Origin: Pseudonocardiales bacterium
Lineage (GTDB): Bacteria; Actinomycetota; Actinomycetes; Mycobacteriales; Pseudonocardiaceae
Assembly: GCA_019241525.1 (NCBI GenBank)
Contig: JAFAWY010000118.1
Location: 47-64,046, forward strand
Direction of reading: 5' to 3'
Length of the DNA stretch: 64,000 nucleotides
Part shown: piece after piece, positions 4,253-48,754 of the stretch
Layout of the letters: every line of letters begins with the position of its first letter
Numbering within the stretch: the stretch's first letter is position 1
Notes under the pieces: model-generated
Databases searched by the model: none
The model's input: the letters and a program-made list of their open reading frames with translations, nothing else
What the model was told of the DNA's origin: nothing
Translations under genes and position numbers: made by a program

Positions 4253-5329
4253 CTATAGCTGCTCTGTCTCGGCGTAGTCGTGGCCGTCGTCAGGGCCGTA
4301 GTCGGTGTTGTTGTCGATGCCGTTGTCGCTGGACTCGCCACCCCACCCGTCGATGGAGTACTCGGCCGCCACCGATGACGGGTCAAACCCGGGCGGGCTG
4401 TCCTTGAGCTGCAGGCCCAGACCAGCCAGCTTCAGCTTCACCTCGTCGATCGACTTGGCACCGAAGTTACGGATGTCGAGCAGGTCGGCCTCGCTGCGGC
4501 TGACCAGCTCACCGACGGTGTGGATGCCCTCCCGCTTGAGGCAGTTGTAGGACCGCACGGTCAGATCCAGGTCCTCGATGGGCATGGCGAAGGCGGCGAT
4601 GGTGTCCGCCTCGGCCGGCGACGGGCCAATCTCGATGCCCTCGGCGTCCACATTGAGCTCGCGGGCCAGGCCGAACAGCTCGACCAGAGTGCGGCCCGCC
4701 GAAGCCAGCGCGTCCCGGGGGGTGATCGACGGCTTGGTCTCCACGTCCAAGATCAGCTTGTCGAAGTCGGTGCGCTGCTCGACCCGGGTGGCCTCGACCT
4801 TGTAGGTCACCTTCAGCACCGGCGAGTAAATGGAGTCCACCGGGATCCGGCCGATCTCGGCACCGGAGGCTTTGTTCTGCACTGCCGGTACGTAGCCGCG
4901 GCCACGTTCCACGACCAGCTCGATCTCCAGCTTGCCTTTGCCGTTCAACGTGGCGATGTGCAGATCGGGGTTGTACACGGTGACGCCGGCCGGCGGCACG
5001 ATGTCGCCCGCGGTGACGTCACCCGGGCCCTGCTTGCGTAGGTACATCGTCACCGGCTCGTCCTCCTCGGAGCCGACCACGAGCTCCTTGAGGTTGAGGA
5101 TGATGTCGGTGACATCTTCCTTGACCCCGGGGACGGTGGTGAACTCGTGGAGCACCCCGTCGATGCGGATGCTGGTGACCGCGGCCCCAGGAATGGACGA
5201 CAGCAGGGTACGGCGCAGGGAGTTACCCAGGGTGTAGCCGAATCCCGGCTCCAGTGGCTCGATAACGAACCGGGAACGGGTGAAATCGATCGGTTCCTCA
5301 GTGAGGTTCGGCCGCTGAGTGATCAACAT
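4253..5329 (-). CDS. rpoA: DNA-directed RNA polymerase subunit alpha
   Basis: [55 protein letters not shown] is near-identical to mycobacterial RpoA. ATG at 5329 is preceded by GAGGAGGA; the track start at 5368 adds 13 non-conserved residues. Confidence 0.97.
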
Positions 5330-6551: not shown

Positions 6552-6932
6552 CTACTTCTTCCCGGCCTTCTTCTTGCCGGCGACCGTCTTCTTCGGACCC
6601 TTGCGGGTGCGGGCGTTGGTCTTGGTCCGTTGACCGCGTACGGGCAGCCCGCGGCGCCACCGCAAGCCCTCGTAACAACCGATCTCGATCTTCCGGCGGA
6701 TGTCTGCCTGGACCTCGCGACGGAGGTCTCCCTCGACCTTGAGGTGCTCTTCGATGTAGTCCCGCAGCTTGACGAGGTCTTCGTCAGTGAGGTCTTTGGA
6801 ACGCAGATCGGGGCTGACCCCGGTGGCGTCGAGGATCTCGTGCGAACGGGTACGGCCGATACCGTAGATATAAGTCAGCGCGATCTCCATCCGCTTATCG
6901 CGGGGAAGATCGACGCCGGCGAGTCGTGCCAT
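6552..6932 (-). CDS. rpsM: 30S ribosomal protein S13
   Basis: [30 protein letters not shown]. Confidence 0.97.
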
Positions 6933-8310: not shown

Positions 8311-8376
8311 CCGCAGTCTGGATGCAGACTGCTGTTTTGGCAGCCCGAAAAACAGCACTCTGCATCCGGACTGCGG
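8311..8376. repeat. REP-like nested palindrome, full copy A
   Basis: The arm CCGCAGTCTGGATGCAGACTGCTGTTTT pairs with AAAACAGCACTCTGCATCCGGACTGCGG. Each arm is itself a hairpin (GCAGTCTG-GATG-CAGACTGC). Confidence 0.9.
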
Positions 8377-8405: not shown

Positions 8406-9560
8406 CTAGGCCTTGACGGGTTCTGGTTCGGCGATCGGGTTCGAGCCGTGAATGGGGCCCTCAGCATCGGACAGCCGGGTCTGCGTGGCGCCACCCCCCC
8501 AACGCAGGGAGATGATCTCCCCGGCAATAGAAACCGCGGTCTCCTCCGGGGTACGGGCACCCAGGTCCAGTCCGATCGGCGATGCGATCTTCGCCAGTTG
8601 CTCGTCGGTGACACCGGCTTCGCGTAGCCGCCGCGTCCGGTCGTTATGCGTCCTGCGCGAGCCCATGGCGCCCAGGTAAGCCAGGTCCAGCTTCAGCGCC
8701 TCGACGATCACCGGCACATCGAATTTGGGATCGTGGGTGAGCACCGTGACGACGGTGCGGGGGTCGATCCGCTGCGCCTCAGCCTCAGCCTTCAGGTACC
8801 GGTGTGGCCAGTTCACCACAACCTCGTGCGCGTCCGGGAAGCGGCTCTTGGTGGCGAACACCGGCCGGGCGTCGCACACCGTGACGTGGTAACCGAGGAA
8901 CACACCGATCCGGGCCATCGCGGCGGCGAAGTCGATCGCGCCGAACACCAGCATCCGGGGTGGCGGTTGCATCGCGTTGACGAACACATCCATGCCTTCA
9001 CCGCGGCGCTGGCCGTCCGGGCCGTAGTGCAAGGTGGCCGTGCGCCCAGCGGCCAACGCGCCCCGGACGTCCTCAAGGACGGCCTCGTCGGCTTGGGTAG
9101 AGCCGACAGTCCCGGTGTGCCGGTCCATCCACACCACCATGCGCAACCCCAACCGTTCGACATCGGGGTGCGCGACCACGGTGGCCACCGCAACCGGCTC
9201 CTTCTTGGTCACCGATGCGGCCACGTCGTCCAGCTCGGGGAAGGTGACCGGGTCCACCTTCTCGACGAACACGTCGATGATGCCGCCGCAGGTCAGGCCA
9301 ACGGCGAACGCGTCGTCGTCGGACACGCCGTAGCGCTGGAGCACGGGTGTGTTGTCCGCCAGCACCTGCTGGCCCAGTTCAAAGACCGCACCCTCGACGC
9401 AGCCCCCGGAGACGCTGCCGACGGCCCGCTCATCCGAGGTCACCAGCATGGAAGCGCCAGCCGGGCGTGGTGCCGAGCGGTAAGTGGACACCACCGTGCC
9501 TAGTGCAGTGGACTTACCTTCACGCCACTGCCCTACCAGTTCGTCCAGCACCTCGCGCAC
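8406..9560 (-). CDS. XdhC/CoxI family molybdoenzyme maturation protein
   Basis: ..ALGTVVSTYRSAPRPAGASMLV..GSVSGGCVEGAV.. N-domain plus a Rossmann-like C-domain (LVFGAIDFAAAMA). Confidence 0.85.
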   Translation of the reverse strand: MREVLDELVGQWREGKSTALGTVVSTYRSAPRPAGASMLVTSDERAVGSVSGGCVEGAVFELGQQVLADNTPVLQRYGVSDDDAFAVGLTCGGIIDVFVEKVDPVTFPELDDVAASVTKKEPVAVATVVAHPDVERLGLRMVVWMDRHTGTVGSTQADEAVLEDVRGALAAGRTATLHYGPDGQRRGEGMDVFVNAMQPPPRMLVFGAIDFAAAMARIGVFLGYHVTVCDARPVFATKSRFPDAHEVVVNWPHRYLKAEAEAQRIDPRTVVTVLTHDPKFDVPVIVEALKLDLAYLGAMGSRRTHNDRTRRLREAGVTDEQLAKIASPIGLDLGARTPEETAVSIAGEIISLRWGGGATQTRLSDAEGPIHGSNPIAEPEPVKA

Positions 9561-16432: not shown

Positions 16433-16470
16433 CCCCACAGTATGGATCCAGACTGCGGGTTTCTGTGGGG
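16433..16470. repeat. REP-like element, degenerate half copy B
   Basis: CAGTATGGATCCAGACTGCGG resembles the arm of copies A and C. It is enclosed by the stem CCCCACAG..CTGTGGGG. Confidence 0.6.
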
Positions 16471-36219: not shown

Positions 36220-37140
36220 GTGCTCGCGGTGGATCCCATGGATGCCTATTCCCGCACGGTCAGTTCGGTGGCGGCAGCCGTCACCCCGCATGTCGCCAGC
36301 CTGCGGATCGGCGCGGGTGCCGGGTCTGCGGTCGTCTTCACCGATGACGGGTTACTGCTGACCAACGCGCATGTCGTGGGAAATGCGCGCGACGGCGTCG
36401 CCGCATTCACCGACGGCACGGAAAGCCGCTTTGACGTGGTGGGCACCGACCCGCTGTCCGATCTCGCGGTACTTCGCACCCGCAGTGCAACACCGTCGGC
36501 GGCCGTGCTCGGTGACGCCGACGAACTGGTCGTCGGGCAGCTGGTGGTTGCCGTTGGCAACCCCCTGGGGCTGGCCGGATCAGTGACCGCAGGAGTCGTC
36601 AGCGGGTTGGGACGCTCCCTGCCGGTACGGTCGGGCCGTGCCATGCGGGTTATCGAAGACGTGATCCAGACCGACGCCGCGCTCAACCCTGGCAACTCCG
36701 GCGGCGCGCTGGCCGATGCAACCGCCAAGGTAGTGGGCATCAATACCGCCGTCGCCGGTTTCGGGCTCGGCATGGCGGTGCCGGTCAACGCGACCACCCG
36801 CCGGATCATCGGCGCGCTCCTGGCCGACGGCCGGGTGCGCCGCGGCTACCTCGGCCTGGTCGGGGTACCGGCACCACTGCCTGCGCCGGTTGCACAGCGC
36901 ACTGGCCAAGCCACCGGCCTGCGCCTGGTGGAGGTTATCCCGGGCAGCCCCGCCGCTCGGGCCGGCCTGCGGGCCGGTGATCTGGTGCTGAGCGCGGGAC
37001 GCCAACCGGTCACCGACGCTCAGGGCATCCAACGCCAGCTGTTCTCCGAGGCCATCGGCAAGAGGTTACCGATCACCGTGCTGCGCAACGGCGCGATGGT
37101 GGACGTCATCACCATGCCCACCGAGCTGGTCTCCACCTGA
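36220..37140 (+). CDS. S1C (HtrA-like) trypsin-fold serine protease with PDZ domain, no signal peptide
   Basis: Catalytic triad in TNAHVV (His), DLAVLR (Asp), GNSGGAL (Ser). C-terminal PDZ-like ..GLRLVEVIPGSPAARAGLRAGDLVL... Confidence 0.85.
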   Translation: MLAVDPMDAYSRTVSSVAAAVTPHVASLRIGAGAGSAVVFTDDGLLLTNAHVVGNARDGVAAFTDGTESRFDVVGTDPLSDLAVLRTRSATPSAAVLGDADELVVGQLVVAVGNPLGLAGSVTAGVVSGLGRSLPVRSGRAMRVIEDVIQTDAALNPGNSGGALADATAKVVGINTAVAGFGLGMAVPVNATTRRIIGALLADGRVRRGYLGLVGVPAPLPAPVAQRTGQATGLRLVEVIPGSPAARAGLRAGDLVLSAGRQPVTDAQGIQRQLFSEAIGKRLPITVLRNGAMVDVITMPTELVST

Positions 37141-37231
37141 GCAGCAGAGACACGCCGTAACCGGTTCGTCGCGCACAGCGACGGATGGTGTGCCACTATC
37201 GCTCCCAGTGTCCGGCCTGGAGGAGTCATCT

Positions 37232-37981
37232 GTGATCACATCCCCACCACGCGGACGGTATGACTGGCCGTGGCGGGGTGGGCCGTCGTTTGTCACCCCA
37301 GACGGCTCCCGGGTGTTGCTGCAGGGGCCCGCGGTGGATGTGTCCAGGCCGTGGTCGTGCGACTTCACCGCGCTGGTGCGCGGTACTCGGCGCAGCTTCA
37401 CCGTCGCCGAGGCCGGTGCCTACGACTGGCACAGCACCTACACCACCATCCCCGATCGGACGCTGCGCCAGCCCTACCGTGGCGGTGAGCTGATCACCGG
37501 CATCCGGGACAACCCCGCTCGCCCGGAACCTCCCGACTACCGGGCAGCCTGGCGCGGGCAATGGTTCGAGCTGCATACCCGGGCCTCCGGAGCTCCCGAC
37601 GGCGTCACGGCAATCTTCGACGCGTTCCGGCTGACCGACACGCCGCTGGGCATGCTGGTGGCGCCCCGCAGCGCTGGGCAGGTCCAGGCAGAGCCGGTAC
37701 GGGTGGCCAAGGAAGTGCCCAGGATCGGCTACCTGATGATCGAACGCCCCGGCACCACCCAGGTGACGGTGCCGGACTTCCGGGGTCTGCCAACCCGGCA
37801 CGGGGAACTGTGGCGCCAACCGCTGGGTCCCGGTGCGCAGGGTCGAGCTCGGCCGGACGCCCTGGTCTTGGCCACTCCCACTGCGGTGATCCGGCTGGTT
37901 CCCGGCCCAACCGACACTCCGGATGCAAACCAGGTACTAGCGTTTCTTCACGAGTTGAACGTCACCTGGGAGTCACCATGA
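37232..37981 (+). CDS. hypothetical protein (249 aa), first gene of the MauE-like operon
   Basis: GTG 37232 lies 7 nt after GGAGGAG. High GC3. The stop overlaps the next ATG (ATGA). I recognise no motif, signal peptide or TM segment. Confidence 0.6.
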   Translation: MITSPPRGRYDWPWRGGPSFVTPDGSRVLLQGPAVDVSRPWSCDFTALVRGTRRSFTVAEAGAYDWHSTYTTIPDRTLRQPYRGGELITGIRDNPARPEPPDYRAAWRGQWFELHTRASGAPDGVTAIFDAFRLTDTPLGMLVAPRSAGQVQAEPVRVAKEVPRIGYLMIERPGTTQVTVPDFRGLPTRHGELWRQPLGPGAQGRARPDALVLATPTAVIRLVPGPTDTPDANQVLAFLHELNVTWESP

Positions 37982-38469
37982 TGCTGCTTGGAGTTCCTGT
38001 CCTCGCAGCGGCATTCCTTCTTGTCGAAGCGGGGCTTGAGCATCTGCGCGAACCGAAATACCTGGCGCGCGCGGCGGGCACCGGCCTTGCCACAGCCCGG
38101 GCCATCGCGGTCGTGGAGCTGCTGATCGGAGCGCCCTCCGCGGCTGCGGTGATCTTCGGTTTCGCCGAGCTGCGCTGGGCGCTGGCCGCCCAGACGGCTA
38201 TCTACCTGGCCTTCGCCGCTCACCTGTGGTGGCGCCACCACCGCGGGGACCAGTCCGATTGCGGCTGCAACCGGATGGGCACCCAAGTCGGGCCCGGAGG
38301 GATCGCCCGCGCCGTGGTGCTGTCCGTCGCCACGCTGGTCGCGACGGCGCTCTATCCAGCGGCCGCATTACCCGGAGGTGGTGTCGCCGTGCTGCTAGTC
38401 GGCTGCGCGTTGGTGCTCGCGTTTCTGCTCTACACCCTGCCGGCCGCTGTTGACGGGCGAGTCGCATGA
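37978..38469 (+). CDS. MauE/DoxX-family redox-associated membrane protein
   Basis: 163 aa, about 4 TM segments, MMLLGVPVLAAAFLLVEAGLEHLREP.. N-terminus and a central ..HHRGDQSDCGCNR.. loop, as in MauE-type proteins. ATGA junctions on both sides. Confidence 0.7.
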   Translation: MMLLGVPVLAAAFLLVEAGLEHLREPKYLARAAGTGLATARAIAVVELLIGAPSAAAVIFGFAELRWALAAQTAIYLAFAAHLWWRHHRGDQSDCGCNRMGTQVGPGGIARAVVLSVATLVATALYPAAALPGGGVAVLLVGCALVLAFLLYTLPAAVDGRVA

Positions 38470-38972
38470 GCGTGCTGGCCGCCATGGTGACGCTGGCTTG
38501 GGGCTGCCTGGCAGTGCTGACCCTGGCGATGGCCGGCATGCTGCGGCAGCTGCGGGAACTGCAGACCGAGGTGGTCGCCCTTCGGGCCGACCAGGGGATG
38601 AAACCCTGGCGGGCCACCGTCGGTCGCCGGATGCCGCAGCTGGCTGGCACCGGGCCCGCGGTCTTGCTGGTCCTCGACCCCGGCTGCGGCCTGTGCGACG
38701 AGGTACACCAACCGTTCACTCGCCTACCCGTCGAGTACCCGGGCATCCGCTTCGAAGTGCTGTCCCCACGCGCTCTGCGGCGGCACTGGACCGAAGCGGC
38801 CAACATCCGGTCCCGGGTCGACGCCGCGCTCGTCGCAGAACTCGACCTGCCCTGGGCGCCGGCCTTGCTGCACGTGGCCGACGACGGGACGGTGCTGGCT
38901 ACGCAGCCGGTAGCGGCGGCCCAGCAGATTTCCCAGCACGTAGCCGGCCTGATGAACACGGCGATGGTCTAG
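38466..38972 (+). CDS. membrane-anchored thioredoxin-fold protein (MauD/TlpA-like), CGLC active site
   Basis: N-terminal TM helix, then ..AVLLVLDPGCGLCDEV.. (CxxC after a beta-strand). 168 aa. Confidence 0.7.
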   Translation: MSVLAAMVTLAWGCLAVLTLAMAGMLRQLRELQTEVVALRADQGMKPWRATVGRRMPQLAGTGPAVLLVLDPGCGLCDEVHQPFTRLPVEYPGIRFEVLSPRALRRHWTEAANIRSRVDAALVAELDLPWAPALLHVADDGTVLATQPVAAAQQISQHVAGLMNTAMV

Positions 38973-38983
38973 CAAGGAGTGCG

Positions 38984-39508
38984 ATGATCCCGCCCGACAT
39001 TCCCCGACTCGACCAGTCCGGTGATCACCTGCAGCGTCGTGCGGTGCAGTTCCGGGGCGTTCCGGAACTGCACCGGCGCGGATTTCTTGCCGTCATCGGT
39101 ACCGGCGCCATGACGTTGGGGCTGACGATGCTGGGATGGATCCCCCTGGCCCGGCCTGCCAGGGCCGAGCAGGGCACGCAATATCCCAACTGCGGTCGAT
39201 ACCACTACGGGCCGAACGGCCCAATCTGTATCGGTGCGCCGTACTCCGATTCGTACTGCGACAAAGACAAGTGGTTCAAGAACGGCTGCTACGGCAACTG
39301 GAACGAGGGTCTGGACTGCTACCAGCCGCGTATGATCTGCCGCGCCGGACCCGACGCGCGCGACGCCTGGCTGTGGAAGTCCAACGATGTGATGTACCGC
39401 TGTGCAGATGGCGAGGTGCACTACAGCGGGGCACCGAACATCGAGAAGCTGGTGTGCAGCGCGACGGTATCCGAGGAAGCGACGGCCTCAGCTCCCCTGC
39501 TGCGATGA
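38984..39508 (+). CDS. Tat-exported small Cys-rich protein (8 Cys in about 125-aa mature part), unknown family
   Basis: AAGGAG SD. Twin-arginine motif HRRGFLAVIGTGAMTLGL with ARA/EQG cleavage-type site. Mature part is rich in Cys, Tyr, Trp, Asn and Gly. Confidence 0.75.
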   Translation: MIPPDIPRLDQSGDHLQRRAVQFRGVPELHRRGFLAVIGTGAMTLGLTMLGWIPLARPARAEQGTQYPNCGRYHYGPNGPICIGAPYSDSYCDKDKWFKNGCYGNWNEGLDCYQPRMICRAGPDARDAWLWKSNDVMYRCADGEVHYSGAPNIEKLVCSATVSEEATASAPLLR

Positions 39509-39675
39509 CCCATCCTCTGCGGCGGGCCGTCTGGGGTCCGGTTCGGGTAACCACTGCGATCATGGTGCTGGCCGCCGCCGTGGCGCTGATGCCGGCCGGT
39601 AGCCGGCTAGGTTGGCTGCTGGCCTGGCTGTTGCTCGGGCTGGTCGCCGGCTACGCGCTGTCCGGCTCAGCGTGA
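39505..39675 (+). CDS. small hydrophobic membrane protein (56 aa)
   Basis: ATGA overlap with the upstream stop. MTHPLRRAVWGPVRVTTAIMVLAAAVALMPAGSRLGWLLAWLLLGLVAGYALSGSA: two hydrophobic helices. Confidence 0.55.
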   Translation: MTHPLRRAVWGPVRVTTAIMVLAAAVALMPAGSRLGWLLAWLLLGLVAGYALSGSA

Positions 39676-39750
39676 AGCACCAACTCGGCATCCCTGCTGA
39701 GCTCGCCGGTCTGGCGGGATTCGTCACGCACCTACTTCACCGTTGGTCTC

Positions 39751-40239
39751 TTGACCGGGGGTGTCGCCATCAGCGCCGTCGCGGTGACACTCGGCAGCCT
39801 GGTGCGCCCGGTGCTACCACCCGCTCTGCGGGTCGGGGTGATCGTCGCGATGGGGGTGTTCATTCTGGCCGGCGAGTGCGGCTTGCACCGCGTGCTGCTG
39901 CCGCACCGGCGAGCCCAGGTGCCCTCGACAGTGATCGCGGCCGGCGGCGACGCGGGCGCGCTGCGGTTCGGTTTCGAGATGGGCAGCGGCGTGCGCACCC
40001 ACATGCCCAGCAACCTGCCCTACCTGCCGCTGGCCGCAGTGTTGCTGTTCAGCAGCTGGCCGGTTGCGCTGGCCTGCGGCCTGGGTTTCGGCCTGGGCCG
40101 GGCAGCGATGGCGTTAGGCCGCCACTACAGCGGCGACGGCACCTGGTGGGACAGCCAGTGGCACCGTCATGAGCGGGTGGTGCGGCTGACCCTGACATTC
40201 ACCGCTACCGTGCTCACCGCCGCCATCATCCTGGCCTGA
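39751..40239 (+). CDS. hypothetical integral membrane protein (162 aa from TTG; true start unclear)
   Basis: Four or five hydrophobic segments and high GC3. The hydrophobic reading frame is already open upstream of the TTG. See findings. Confidence 0.55.
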   Translation: MTGGVAISAVAVTLGSLVRPVLPPALRVGVIVAMGVFILAGECGLHRVLLPHRRAQVPSTVIAAGGDAGALRFGFEMGSGVRTHMPSNLPYLPLAAVLLFSSWPVALACGLGFGLGRAAMALGRHYSGDGTWWDSQWHRHERVVRLTLTFTATVLTAAIILA

Positions 40240-40273: not shown

Positions 40274-40338
40274 CCGCAGTCTGGATGCAGACTGCGGTTT
40301 TTAAGGCTCCCCAAACAGCAGTCTGCATCCAGACTGCG
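40274..40338. repeat. REP-like nested palindrome, full copy C
   Basis: CCGCAGTCTGGATGCAGACTGCGGTTTTT..AAACAGCAGTCTGCATCCAGACTGCG. Same arms as copy A at 8311-8376. Confidence 0.9.
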
Positions 40339-40671: not shown

Positions 40672-42243
40672 CGTAGCTATTCACCACCTGTCGGGCCGGG
40701 AGTGAGTGTGGATCGGTGGTGGTATGGGTGCGGCGTGTCGGCTTGATCATCGTGTGGGTGTGCTGATCATGGTGGTTTGTGTCGGAGCTGCCACCGGTGC
40801 CTGCTGGGTCGTCGGTGGGGCAGCTGTGGGCGCTGGTCTGTGAGCTTCGGCGGGATAACGCCGCGCTGCGTGAGGTAGTTGAGGCGCAGAACGCCCGGAT
40901 TACGGCGCTGGAGCGGCAGTTGGGCAAGGATTCCTCCACGTCGAGTAAGCCACCCAGTTCGGATTCGCCGTATCGCAAACCAGTGCGGCGCTCTTCGCGA
41001 AAGTCCTCGGGGCGCCGGCCGGGTAAGCAGCCCGGGGATCCGGGGACGACGATGCCGCTGGTGGATGCTCCGAGTGAGATCATCACCGGTGATCCGGGTT
41101 GCTGCGGTGGTTGTGGAGCGGACCTGGCGGGGGCACCGGTGGTGGGGGTGCAACGCCGCCAGGTCGTCGAGGTGTCCCCGCCGCCTGCGCCGCGGGTGAC
41201 CGAGTACCGGATCGTGACCCGCGTCTGCGTGGCGTGTGGCGTCCGGGCCACCGTCATTCCACCTGGGTGTCCGCCTGCCCGGGCCCAGTACGGACCCACG
41301 GTGGCCGCCCGGGCCGCGGAGCTGGTCTGCGCGCACTATCTGCCGGTGGCCCGGGCGGCACGGTTGATGCACTCGATGGTCGGGGTGGCAGTGTCGGTGG
41401 GGTTTATGGCGTCGGTGCGCGGGCGGGCCGCCCGGATGCTGGAGCCCACCTTCTTGCCCCGGGTGCGCCAGCTGTTGCGCCAGGCGGGGGTGCTGCACGT
41501 CGATGAGACACCCGCCCGCGCCGCCGGCGGCTTGGGATACGTCCACGTCGCCGCCACCGAGTATCTGACCGCCCTGCACACCGGCGGACGCAGCAAAGCT
41601 GACATCGACGCCGGGGGTGTGCTGCCCGGCTATGGCGGCACCATCGTGCGCGACGGCTACGCCGGGTATACCCACCTCGTCGACGCCCACCACGCCTGGT
41701 GCGGCGCGCACCTGCTTCGTGATCTGCGCGCCATCCACGACGCCGACCCCCATGGCCAACTATGGGCCACCGCCATGGCCACCACGCTGACCGACGCCAC
41801 CACCGCCGCAGCGGCCGCCCGCGCCGCCGGACAGACCACTTTGGATCCCCAGATCCTGGCTACCATCTGCAACCACTACCGCGGCGCGGCCACGCTGGGC
41901 ATCAGCACCAACAGCGCCCGCGCCGACCCCCTTGCCCGCGACGCTCTGGCGTTAGCGCGGCGCTTCCGCGACCACGAAGACACCATCCTGCGCTTCGTGG
42001 CCAATCTCGGTGTGCCTTTCACCAATAACCAGGCTGAAAGGGATGTCCGGCCCGTCAAAATCCAGCAACGCACCTCCGGTGGCACCTGGCGCACCCTGAC
42101 CGGACTAGCCGACTTCGCCATCGTCCAGTCCTAACCTATCCACCGCCACCAAATGGGGACTCGACACCCTTGACGTCCTCACCCAACTCTTCACCGGCCA
42201 GCCCTGGTTACCACCAGCCCCAGAACCCTGCTGAATAGCTACG
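40672..42243 (+). mobile_element. IS66-family insertion sequence (single transposase ORF), 1572 bp
   Basis: 12-bp perfect terminal inverted repeats CGTAGCTATTCA (40672-40683) and TGAATAGCTACG (42232-42243), flanked by the direct repeat CCCGCT (40666-40671 and 42244-42249). Confidence 0.75.
40779..42234 (+). pseudogene. IS66-family transposase with C-terminal +1 frameshift
   Basis: Leucine-zipper-like N-terminus, CxxC..CxxC zinc-finger region, DDE region (..LHVDETP..) and PFTNNQAERDVRPVKIQQRTSGG signature. The frame stops at TAA 42132-42134; the conserved tail LSTATKWGLDTLDVLTQLFTGQPWLPPAPEPC* continues in the next frame from 42136. Confidence 0.8.
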
Positions 42244-42521
42244 CCCGCTCAACACCACCACCCCGGATACGGTAGGAAATAAGTACGATGTCAAACGTAA
42301 TTCTGAAACGTGCGCTGCCGATCAGCATTTTCACTATTCGGCAGGAAGTCGATGACCTGAGCCGACCTCCCGGCGGCACCCAGGCGGCGGGAATGTCAGC
42401 CGGTAGACCCAGGACCAGGTCGTCACTCCCTGCGGTCAAACGGATGCCGACCGTTTCCGCGCCTCCGGATGTTTTGCGGGAGTGTTGCATCCAGGGCTAA
42501 CGTCGGGCAGGTCAATCGAAC

Positions 42522-45089
<2,568 letters not shown>

Positions 45090-46492: not shown

Positions 46493-48572
<2,080 letters not shown>

Positions 48573-48575
48573 CAC

Positions 48576-48662
48576 GCTCCCTGCGCCGGCATGACCCGGA
48601 TCAGGTTCGACGGTCGGGGTCGCCATGACCCCCTCTCAGCCCAGCGGCCTGGACTCCCGTGC
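48576..48662 (-). promoter_or_regulatory. TPP (THI-box) riboswitch controlling thiO-thiS-thiG
   Basis: The minus strand reads ..GGGCTGAGAGGGGGTC..GAACCTGATCCGGGTCATGCCGGCGCAGGGAGCGTG-ATG. Confidence 0.88.
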
Positions 48663-48754
48663 GGACCACCTCCCACCGTACCTCGCCATCGCACGGCGAT
48701 GCGGGCTTATCACCGGCACAAGCATCCAAAGGCTCCCCAGCGCAGCACCCAGTC

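Follow-up and report, generated by a model that had tools for sequence, protein, structure and literature searches.

A candidate membrane selenoprotein in a conserved actinobacterial gene module with MauE-type, thioredoxin-like and Cys-rich Tat-signal proteins

The window analysed here is a stretch of 64,000 nucleotides from a Pseudonocardiales bacterium (Pseudonocardiaceae; GenBank assembly GCA_019241525.1, contig JAFAWY010000118.1, positions 47 to 64,046). Its positions 37232-40239 hold an operon of six plus-strand open reading frames (ORFs), of which the last two, ORF5 and ORF6, very probably make up one gene for a membrane selenoprotein of about 244 amino acids (aa) in an unannotated family, as judged from sequence comparison. 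The coordinates and lengths of the six ORFs agree with those listed in an earlier reading of this DNA from its letters alone (the sequence-only reading). The genes of the operon and the two features that concern its last gene are the following.

ORF1, 37232-37981, plus strand: GTG start, 249 aa
ORF2, 37978-38469, plus strand: 163 aa, MauE family
ORF3, 38466-38972, plus strand: 168 aa, predicted thioredoxin fold with an N-terminal transmembrane (TM) anchor
ORF4, 38984-39508, plus strand: 174-aa precursor, twin-arginine signal, Cys-rich
ORF5, 39505-39675, plus strand: 56 aa as called, ending at TGA 39673-39675
ORF6, 39751-40239, plus strand: 162 aa as called, nominal TTG start
ORF5, in-frame UGA and ORF6 together, 39505-40239, plus strand: predicted single polytopic membrane protein of ~244 aa
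Candidate selenocysteine (Sec) codon TGA, 39673-39675, plus strand: in-frame, residue 57
Hairpin CUCGCC-GGUCU-GGCGGG, 39702-39718, plus strand: resembles a selenocysteine insertion sequence (SECIS), within the invariant block 39694-39719

The six plus-strand ORFs with ATGA overlaps (at 37978, 38466 and 39505) and the Shine-Dalgarno (SD) sites (GGAGGAG at 37219-37225 and AAGGAG at 38974-38979) were found as the sequence-only reading had described them. Its separation of ORF5 (56 aa) and ORF6 (162 aa) into two products does not stand, the two being one frame that is split only by TGA 39673-39675. An identical operon is present on contigs of the uncultured Pseudonocardiales metagenome-assembled genome (MAG) GCA_019247675.1, and the close homologues of the module proteins all come from Pseudonocardiaceae MAGs. 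The mycobacterial def-thiC interval against which the locus had been set is not applicable, as the host belongs to the Pseudonocardiaceae and is not a mycobacterium.

ORF6 shares the frame of ORF5, which stays open from position 39676 on. Ahead of the nominal TTG start of ORF6, 25 codons (STNSASLLSSPVWRDSSRTYFTVGL) are conserved as protein in all 15 distinct loci of the first search round, TGA occupies the junction in all 15 of them, and the stretch behind it is conserved even in loci whose other proteins are just 40-60% identical. The conservation of ORF5, in turn, stays undiminished right up to its stop codon. Within the 75-nt 'spacer', substitutions read in the TGA frame add 28 synonymous codon types and 24 amino-acid types, compared with 10/41 and 9/39 in the two other frames, in which stops are present. 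No ATG, GTG or TTG lies between the TGA and codon 26 in the clade of the window. The motif that flanks the codon reads …G(Y/F)xxSGSx before it and SxNSAx(L/V/M)LxS(P/S)VWR after it; besides the candidate Sec in SGS-x-U-S-x-NSA, the protein contains LP(H/Q)xxRQVP, FGFEMG(S/T)GxRT and GFGxGR. Another frame, opening at GTG 39672 with a GTGA overlap and reading 'VKHQLGIPAELAGLAG…', was rejected for its stops in L009 and L010 and its non-coding pattern of substitution.

When the part of ORF5/6 behind the TGA served as HMMER query against 1.84 billion representative proteins, 623 representative clusters at 50% identity were returned. The sole Cys form among the best 150 of these clusters is P0333 (locus L023), a fused ORF of 246 aa with an ORF5-like N-terminus and a Cys codon (TGT) exactly at the TGA position, its junction reading …GYAISGFV-C-SLNSADLLSS…. 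When metagenomes were scanned with a pattern allowing TGA, TGC or TGT, TGA was found in 95 of 95 matches, and 86 distinct 72-nt junctions comprise 85 with TGA and 1 with TGT. The codons just after the TGA appear to be translated because their synonymous positions vary freely: the third base of the GCN codon is A in 7, G in 48, C in 20 and T in 11 sequences while its first two bases never change, and that of the TCN codon is G in 54, A in 29 and C in 3. Cultured Micromonospora arida, M. zamorensis, Actinopolymorpha spp. and Nonomuraea cavernae share the junction with TGA (…AGYSISGSV-TGA-S(F/H)NSAML… and …AGYSTSGSV-TGA-SHNSAALL…), their copies being annotated as two hypothetical proteins. Since TGA is the ordinary stop of ORF1, ORF2 and ORF4 within the same operon, its decoding at 39673-39675 must hinge on local context.

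ORF5, ORF6 and the fused ORF5-C-ORF6 have no relative in Pfam, NCBIfam or the PDB, and no publication on the family was found in literature searches. Kinship between ORF6 and MauE was rejected, alignment of the two families with hhalign giving a probability of 0.4%; the label 'sulfite exporter TauE/SafE' carried by one ORF6 homologue at JGI was not reproduced by Pfam. A degenerate second junction of UGA and hairpin is found in L080, ~1.7 kb from the intact one (2890-2961 and 4623-4694) and in a broken flanking frame, which suggests a partial duplication. A 91-nt 'tRNA-Asn' called by ARAGORN inside ORF5 of L005 (8644-8734) and L006 (8568-8658), which ends just beyond the UGA, is uncalled in other loci and is almost certainly a false positive.

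The SECIS-like hairpin has a 6-bp stem and a (G/A)GUCU loop, the first G of which stands 32 nt after the UGA; the distance range used by bSECISearch is about 16-37 nt. Its GGUCU loop resembles the SECIS loop of E. coli fdhF. The structure is predicted by both RNAalifold and RNAfold, and the block 39694-39719 around it is invariant in 15 loci. Over the 86 junction sequences pairing is retained in 99.2% of cells, part of the invariance in this large set having been fixed by the search pattern itself. Two pairs alternate with wobble (U-A/U-G 47/39 and C-G/U-G 61/25), and a compensatory change from C-G to U-A is seen at one pair in 3 sequences. Synonymous sites inside the hairpin are frozen, with TCG in 86 of 86 sequences and a following codon that never ends in C or T. 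The Cys homologue has A for G in its loop; taking this for SECIS decay was rejected, because Actinopolymorpha has TGA together with the same AGUCU loop. Searches with Rfam returned nothing in 39600-39800 and nothing at gathering score across the locus.

The standard criteria by which bacterial selenoproteins are identified from sequence are a UGA within the frame, a homologue with Cys in its place and a SECIS behind it (PMC1794560). SelD, SelA and SelB are reported in 5 of 5 genomes of Micromonospora and 4 of 5 of Pseudonocardia (PMC5029168 supplement), and the 2016 census lists mostly one or two known selenoproteins per such genome (Micromonospora 1-2, Pseudonocardia 1-5); the ORF5/6 selenoprotein would be a concrete reason for these actinomycetes to keep the Sec machinery. 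We infer SelB-mediated insertion of Sec because the UGA appears to be translated, Cys replaces it in a fused homologue and a hairpin with a GGUCU loop of the fdhF type follows. It is highly likely that translation proceeds through the UGA, and likely, at a slightly lower level of confidence, that the codon specifies selenocysteine.

Several observations weigh against this interpretation. Just one Cys homologue was found; the hairpin overlaps the conserved residues S-P-V-W-R, its folding energy is unexceptional for its G+C content (z = -0.7), and its invariance is in part a product of the search pattern, as said above. No tRNA-Sec or sel gene was detected within the window or the collected loci, and the candidate Sec has no nearby Cys partner, UxxC and CxxU motifs both being absent. 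Many distant homologues also have ATG, GTG or TTG 5-6 codons past the TGA (in 'MLxSxxWR'), so that separate initiation is possible in them. The UGA might accordingly be a true stop behind which ORF6 is separately produced by re-initiation (at CUG in the clade of the window, at AUG, GUG or UUG elsewhere), the hairpin and the post-stop conservation serving translational coupling and P0333 being a secondary fusion by change of TGA to TGT. Gene callers and RefSeq do annotate two genes. Yet S-x-N-S-A keeps its amino acids with free third positions across four orders, which is expected only if it is translated, the position in question is CTG in all 15 loci of the window clade with no SD upstream, and ORF5 keeps its conservation to the very end. 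Re-initiation is on these grounds considered quite improbable.

With UGA taken as Sec, the ORF5/6 protein shares with the FdhA/fdhF paradigm of bacterial selenoproteins an in-frame UGA, a hairpin inside the coding sequence and a Cys homologue, and the family is dominated by the Sec form, just as FdhA and GrdA are. It differs from the listed selenoprotein families in being a polytopic membrane protein without similarity to them and without UxxC, CxxU or TxxU, and in occurring in aerobic soil actinomycetes, where it has been annotated as two hypothetical proteins. The family of membrane selenoproteins so delineated would apparently be large and unannotated, and many gene models would be corrected by it.

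ORF2 had been recognised as a MauE-type protein, and PF07291 matches it at 32.5 bits against a cut-off of 27, its residues 6-123 covering positions 8-126 of the 128 of the profile; its orthologues are likewise flagged as MauE. D94-C95-G96-C97, in the loop between TM3 and TM4, is invariant in 14 ORF2 orthologues, and CGC or C-x-C is retained in the MauE of Micromonospora, Actinopolymorpha and further homologues. MauE proteins from two other phyla replace DsbB in E. coli and need their CXC motif for this; MauE has accordingly been described as a general DsbB-like disulfide generator and not as a factor specific for methylamine dehydrogenase (MADH), with a distribution largely independent of mau clusters and markers (10.64898/2026.03.05.709764). 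By analogy, ORF2 is read as a putative DsbB-like disulfide generator.

ORF3, described earlier as a membrane-anchored protein of thioredoxin fold with a CGLC site, bears that description out through its CxxC and cis-Pro-like motifs and a profile match to MPT53/DsbE. C74 and C77 (C-G-L-C) and P129-W130-x-P132-A133 are invariant in the orthologue alignment. The best PDB match of a profile from 14 orthologues is M. tuberculosis MPT53/DsbE (1lu4, E=4.5e-7), followed by DsbF (E=0.038) and then by glutaredoxins and thioredoxins. No Pfam or NCBIfam family matches ORF3 at E<=1 apart from one irrelevant match at 0.11, and the assignment of the fold was made from the PDB profile search, in which the CxxC and the 'PW-x-PA…DGT' region are aligned, CGLC and PWAPA of ORF3 standing opposite CPFC and PWQPA of MPT53. 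ORF3 thus shares with MPT53 (1lu4) and DsbF (3ios) the thioredoxin fold, the CxxC and the cis-Pro/beta-strand region 'PW-x-PA…DG(T)', and is probably DsbE/MPT53-like in sequence and MauD-like in role. The E-value of the MPT53 match is modest, however, and MPT53 is soluble and secreted with a cleavable signal, whereas the N-terminus of ORF3 forms a TM helix without charges, behind which comes an amphipathic segment rich in Arg. This segment, of the 'LRQLRELQ' type, always follows the TM anchor.

ORF4 was earlier taken for a Tat-signal protein (exported by twin-arginine translocation) with 8 Cys, which is borne out by an invariant RRGFL, an AxA site and 8 invariant Cys. From its N-terminus, it consists of a 'DIPRxDQ' region, HRRGFL, an h-region, an ARA/EQ cleavage site and a mature all-beta domain of ~110 aa, where all 8 of the invariant Cys are found together with W-F, AW-x-W and RCADG motifs. 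The invariant Cys are even in number and spaced 10-20 residues apart; Trp, Asp and Tyr positions are invariant as well, and a segment before the RR motif is conserved. Close relatives of ORF4 form 87 clusters, all named 'hypothetical', while in the wider family the number of Cys is 6 or 8, and the pre-RR 'Φ-x-x-(I/V)-P-x-x-D' is retained. RR-x-[FVL]-L is present in most distant family members, and the Tat-signal model TIGR01409 scores ORF4 at 12.0 bits, below its cut-off of 16.7 (E=0.22). ORF4 does not resemble MauA, in agreement with the sequence-only reading: there is no Pfam match, no PDB profile match (nothing below E=0.1) and no fold match, a Foldseek search of the PDB with its model (pLDDT 61 overall, ~80 in the beta core) giving nothing below E=0.8. 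It is the fastest-evolving gene of the module, with 59-82% identity compared with 86-96% for the protease encoded upstream of ORF1.

One ORF4 subfamily (L038, L079 and L089) lacks the RR pair. In two of its members, L038 and L079 (Ga0136625_1017104 and Ga0183260_10010268), the Cys-rich gene continues in frame into an ORF5-like segment, so that a single ORF encodes the Cys-rich domain, RRRRRW, two TM helices and SGSP before the TGA; L089 is unfused. If genuine, this fusion ties the Cys-rich domain physically to the selenoprotein and bears on membrane sidedness.

ORF1 has homologues in 123 clusters, every one of them named 'hypothetical', and its alignment has 71 invariant columns. It gave no match in Pfam or NCBIfam scans, and PDB profile searches gave none below E=0.07 for ORF1 or the ORF6 family. 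A confident AlphaFold2 model of ORF1 (pLDDT 81.7) found no significant fold match in the PDB with Foldseek and shows weak half-domain likeness to sandwiches of the PsbP, EagT6 and Tsi3 type. It is predicted to be a cytoplasmic, beta-rich protein of a new family and is possibly a chaperone or maturation factor. ORF1, ORF4 and the selenoprotein thus add three components without characterised relatives.

These genes occur together well beyond the window. Among loci with enough sequence, the UGA gene is immediately preceded by ORF4 in 78 of 82, ORF3 is upstream in 52 of 59, ORF1 is upstream in 31 of 35 long loci, and MauE is adjacent in 24 of 35 long loci, the loci being phylogenetically non-independent and chosen via ORF4, ORF6 or the junction pattern. 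The linkage of MauE, the thioredoxin-like protein and the Cys-rich Tat protein, noticed earlier at this one locus, therefore extends to four actinobacterial orders. Of the MauE-centred module that had been envisaged, the linkage stands, but the conserved core consists of ORF1, the thioredoxin-like protein, ORF4 and the ORF5/6 protein, with MauE not constant. Gene order varies between genera. Micromonospora has the thioredoxin-like gene, ORF5-U-ORF6, ORF1 and ORF4, with MauE and a pair of extracytoplasmic function (ECF) sigma and anti-sigma genes upstream; Actinopolymorpha has MauE, the thioredoxin-like gene, ORF5-U-ORF6, ORF1 and ORF4; and Nonomuraea has ORF1, the thioredoxin-like gene, ORF4 and ORF5-U-ORF6, with MauE not adjacent. 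In Micromonospora arida (L025/L026, 5456-9163), four genes part MauE from the rest of the module, two of them for secreted proteins, one of 141 aa that contains Cys and one of 294 aa, and two for the ECF sigma factor and its putative anti-sigma partner; this arrangement hints at envelope-stress regulation of the Micromonospora module.

Amongst known systems, the module is closest in layout to the mauE-mauD-mauA genes of Paracoccus and Methylobacterium, with which it has in common a CXC MauE, an anchored CxxC thioredoxin-like protein and a small Cys-rich subunit with a long twin-arginine signal. It differs from mau clusters in that MauB, MauG, MauF and amicyanin are absent, ORF4 is unrelated to MauA, ORF3 is under the thresholds of the MauD and TlpA models, and a predicted cytoplasmic ORF1 and membrane selenoprotein are constant extra components. 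The absence of MauB, MauG and amicyanin, reported earlier for this locus, holds in every locus context examined, on the basis of called genes and Pfam labels in those contexts. With the generalist MauE described by Gonzalez et al. (bioRxiv 2026, 10.64898/2026.03.05.709764) ORF2 shares the CGC in the TM3-TM4 loop, an adjacent partner of the thioredoxin superfamily and a location outside a mau cluster; that MauE serves a general periplasmic pathway via DsbA or MauD, whereas the MauE of this operon forms part of a dedicated module, and the charges of its loops and of the thioredoxin-like protein do not clearly put the active sites outside the cell. A further parallel is offered by decRiPPter families of Streptomyces, in which mauE (in one family also mauD) lies beside the gene of a product with >=8 Cys (at least eight) and other mau genes are absent, interpreted as dedicated disulfide modification (PMC7794033). 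ORF4 differs from the short precursors of those RiPPs (peptides made by the ribosome and modified after translation) in being a folded domain of ~110 aa with a Tat signal, and no selenoprotein was noted in the decRiPPter families (PMC7794033).

We consider it reasonably probable that the locus carries a copy of a redox module conserved among actinobacteria, in which a dedicated thiol/selenol relay serves the Cys-rich Tat protein. MauE, linked to quinone, and ORF3 would pair up in the manner of DsbB and DsbA, the membrane selenoprotein would add a selenol/selenenylsulfide step to the relay, and the three together would make or redox-cycle the 3-4 disulfides of ORF4. ORF1 would act as a cytoplasmic chaperone or maturation factor for the ORF4 precursor, possibly by binding its conserved N-terminal region. 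Such a module would tie the MauE disulfide pathway to a dedicated client, the Cys-rich protein with its Tat signal, and to selenium chemistry. Of the dedicated redox maturation that the sequence-only reading had proposed for ORF4, the linkage is well borne out, while oxidative maturation dedicated to ORF4 stays presumptive and the charges even suggest that the thioredoxin domain and the Sec are cytoplasmic.

The sidedness of the membrane proteins is the main difficulty. In 52 of 52 ORF3 homologues there is no Lys or Arg (K/R) before the TM helix, compared with 3.3 K/R in the next 20 residues, so ORF3 may be oriented N-out/C-in; a similar N-terminus is presumably found in canonical MauD. The N-tail of ORF5 is rich in Arg in every case and leads into two TM helices. 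MauE has an N-tail without charge and an abundance of K/R in loops 1 and 3, so that charge counts leave its orientation ambiguous. Taken with the positive-inside rule, these charges would place the thioredoxin domain, the Sec and perhaps the CGC on the cytoplasmic side, and the experimentally tested MauE homologues work in the periplasm (10.64898/2026.03.05.709764). Points against a simple relay are that a cytoplasmic thioredoxin domain and Sec would fit poorly with a periplasmic scheme of the DsbB/DsbA type, that MauE is missing from about a third of the long loci, and that ORF4 could be a partner of the machinery instead of its substrate. A variant that we regard as rather unlikely places the whole machine at the cytoplasmic face of the membrane, where the CGC loop, the tethered thioredoxin domain and the Sec would form a quinone-driven thiol/selenol relay that folds ORF4 before Tat export, with ORF1 holding the precursor by its conserved pre-RR motif. 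If true, this would let ORF4 pass Tat quality control and would amount to a natural route to disulfides inside the bacterial cytoplasm that is tied to Tat export and relies on a new membrane selenoprotein; how MauE and MauD can serve MauA, itself exported by Tat, might be explained by it as well. The module makes a testable question of the site and manner in which disulfide-rich Tat substrates gain their disulfides, long an awkward matter for Tat biology and MADH maturation.

Other readings of the module were weighed against an oxidative relay. Electrons could instead flow in the reducing direction, with the selenoprotein feeding the thioredoxin-like protein in the way of CcdA/DsbD, MauE as an optional neighbour and ORF4 as a redox-active extracytoplasmic effector, for example in the repair of oxidative damage or in metal or metalloid handling. 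The constancy of selenoprotein and thioredoxin-like protein in modules that lack MauE would suit this, as would the predicted cytoplasmic position of Sec and thioredoxin domain, where reducing power originates, and the preference of Sec for catalytic redox sites (PMC1794560). The selenoprotein, however, shows no likeness to CcdA/DsbD and offers just one redox residue, and MauE homologues act as oxidases. M. tuberculosis DsbE/MPT53, which we take to be an oxidase too, likewise speaks against a reducing pathway, and we hold it unlikely. ORF4 might also be a secreted disulfide-rich toxin or bacteriocin that is folded by MauE and the thioredoxin-like protein, as with BdbA/BdbB and sublancin, the small membrane proteins providing immunity. 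Its rapid evolution, the varied genomic contexts and the position of one copy (L019), which is flanked by tRNA genes and neighbours those for an integrase, RepSA and a recombinase, would agree with this. The supposed immunity genes are nonetheless one conserved, probably Sec-containing protein whose motifs are kept in four orders, conservation of a strength more to be expected of a catalytic component than of an immunity protein; the conserved and presumably cytoplasmic ORF1 would be left unexplained, and no transporter or lysis gene is present. This reading is very improbable.

That this is an ordinary but split mau locus, whose mauB, mauG and amicyanin genes lie in another part of the genome, is hardly credible. 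The order of MauE, thioredoxin-like protein and small Cys-rich Tat protein does resemble mauE-mauD-mauA, but ORF4 has neither sequence nor fold similarity to the MADH light chain, more than 100 module loci have unrelated flanks with no MauB or MauG nearby, and MauE is distributed independently of mau markers (10.64898/2026.03.05.709764). In the favoured reading, the module is unrelated to methylamine dehydrogenase.

The surroundings of the operon contain three further features.

HtrA-like protease gene, 36220-37140, plus strand: directly upstream of ORF1
Terminator-like palindrome of the repetitive extragenic palindromic (REP) kind, 40274-40302, plus strand: 12-bp stem, loop GAUG, then U5
IS66 element, 40673-42242: 8-bp target duplication, transposase 40779-42134

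The protease is an HtrA-like S1C serine protease with one PDZ domain (Pfam Trypsin_2 4e-29, PDZ_2 5.7e-11), in which TNAHVV, DLAVL and GNSGGAL, as expected of the His-Asp-Ser triad, are visible; it scores under the NCBIfam equivalog cut-offs. It has neither a signal peptide nor a TM segment, which is unusual for an HtrA-type enzyme. Of the 31 loci whose sequence extends far enough, 16 have the gene before ORF1, and these 16 are all of the Pseudonocardiaceae type; L019, L020, Micromonospora, Actinopolymorpha and Nonomuraea lack it there. As an upstream companion of the module the gene is clade-specific. The protein is 86-96% identical across loci whose ORF4 proteins share just 59-82%, and is more constrained than any module gene it accompanies.

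The module lies between def and thiC in several MAGs. Elsewhere it is found beside NeuB and methyltransferase genes, between a CDP-alcohol phosphatidyltransferase gene and CinA, or beside integrase, RepSA and recombinase genes between two tRNA genes. The last of these is L019, the most divergent copy of the Pseudonocardiaceae type, which is placed between tRNA-Pro and tRNA-Gly genes (6633-6709 and 9341-9413), adjoins a phage-type integrase, a serine recombinase and the RepSA replication gene, and has ORF1 cut to 53 aa. These neighbours suggest that the copy is carried on, or inserted beside, an integrative element.

A palindrome and an IS66 element had been placed directly after the operon; the palindrome is real, and IS66 starts 433 bp after the operon. 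The REP-like 20-nt palindrome GCAGTCTGGATGCAGACTGC occurs at 5 loci in the window compared with 0.02 expected (8313-8332, 8355-8374, 16437-16456, 40276-40295 and 40318-40337), and twice its copies form inverted pairs ~42 nt apart. The hairpin at 40274-40302, with -26.7 kcal/mol and z = -4.9 by direct folding, was not reported by a terminator scan; it is also present in the IS-free allele L001, and closes the operon in terminator-like fashion. The IS66 transposase (451 aa) matches DDE_Tnp_IS66 (PF03050) at 149.6 bits. The element is missing from the otherwise 100% identical contig L001, so that its insertion is recent and polymorphic in the population, and L001 carries at the insertion site an intact minus-strand ORF of 203 aa that belongs to no known family. 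Upstream of thiC (42628-44268), no thiamine pyrophosphate (TPP) riboswitch was found at Rfam gathering score in 42243-42627, with IS66 in or out; the window's sole TPP riboswitch lies close to thiO/thiS/thiG, at 48561-48670 of the minus strand.

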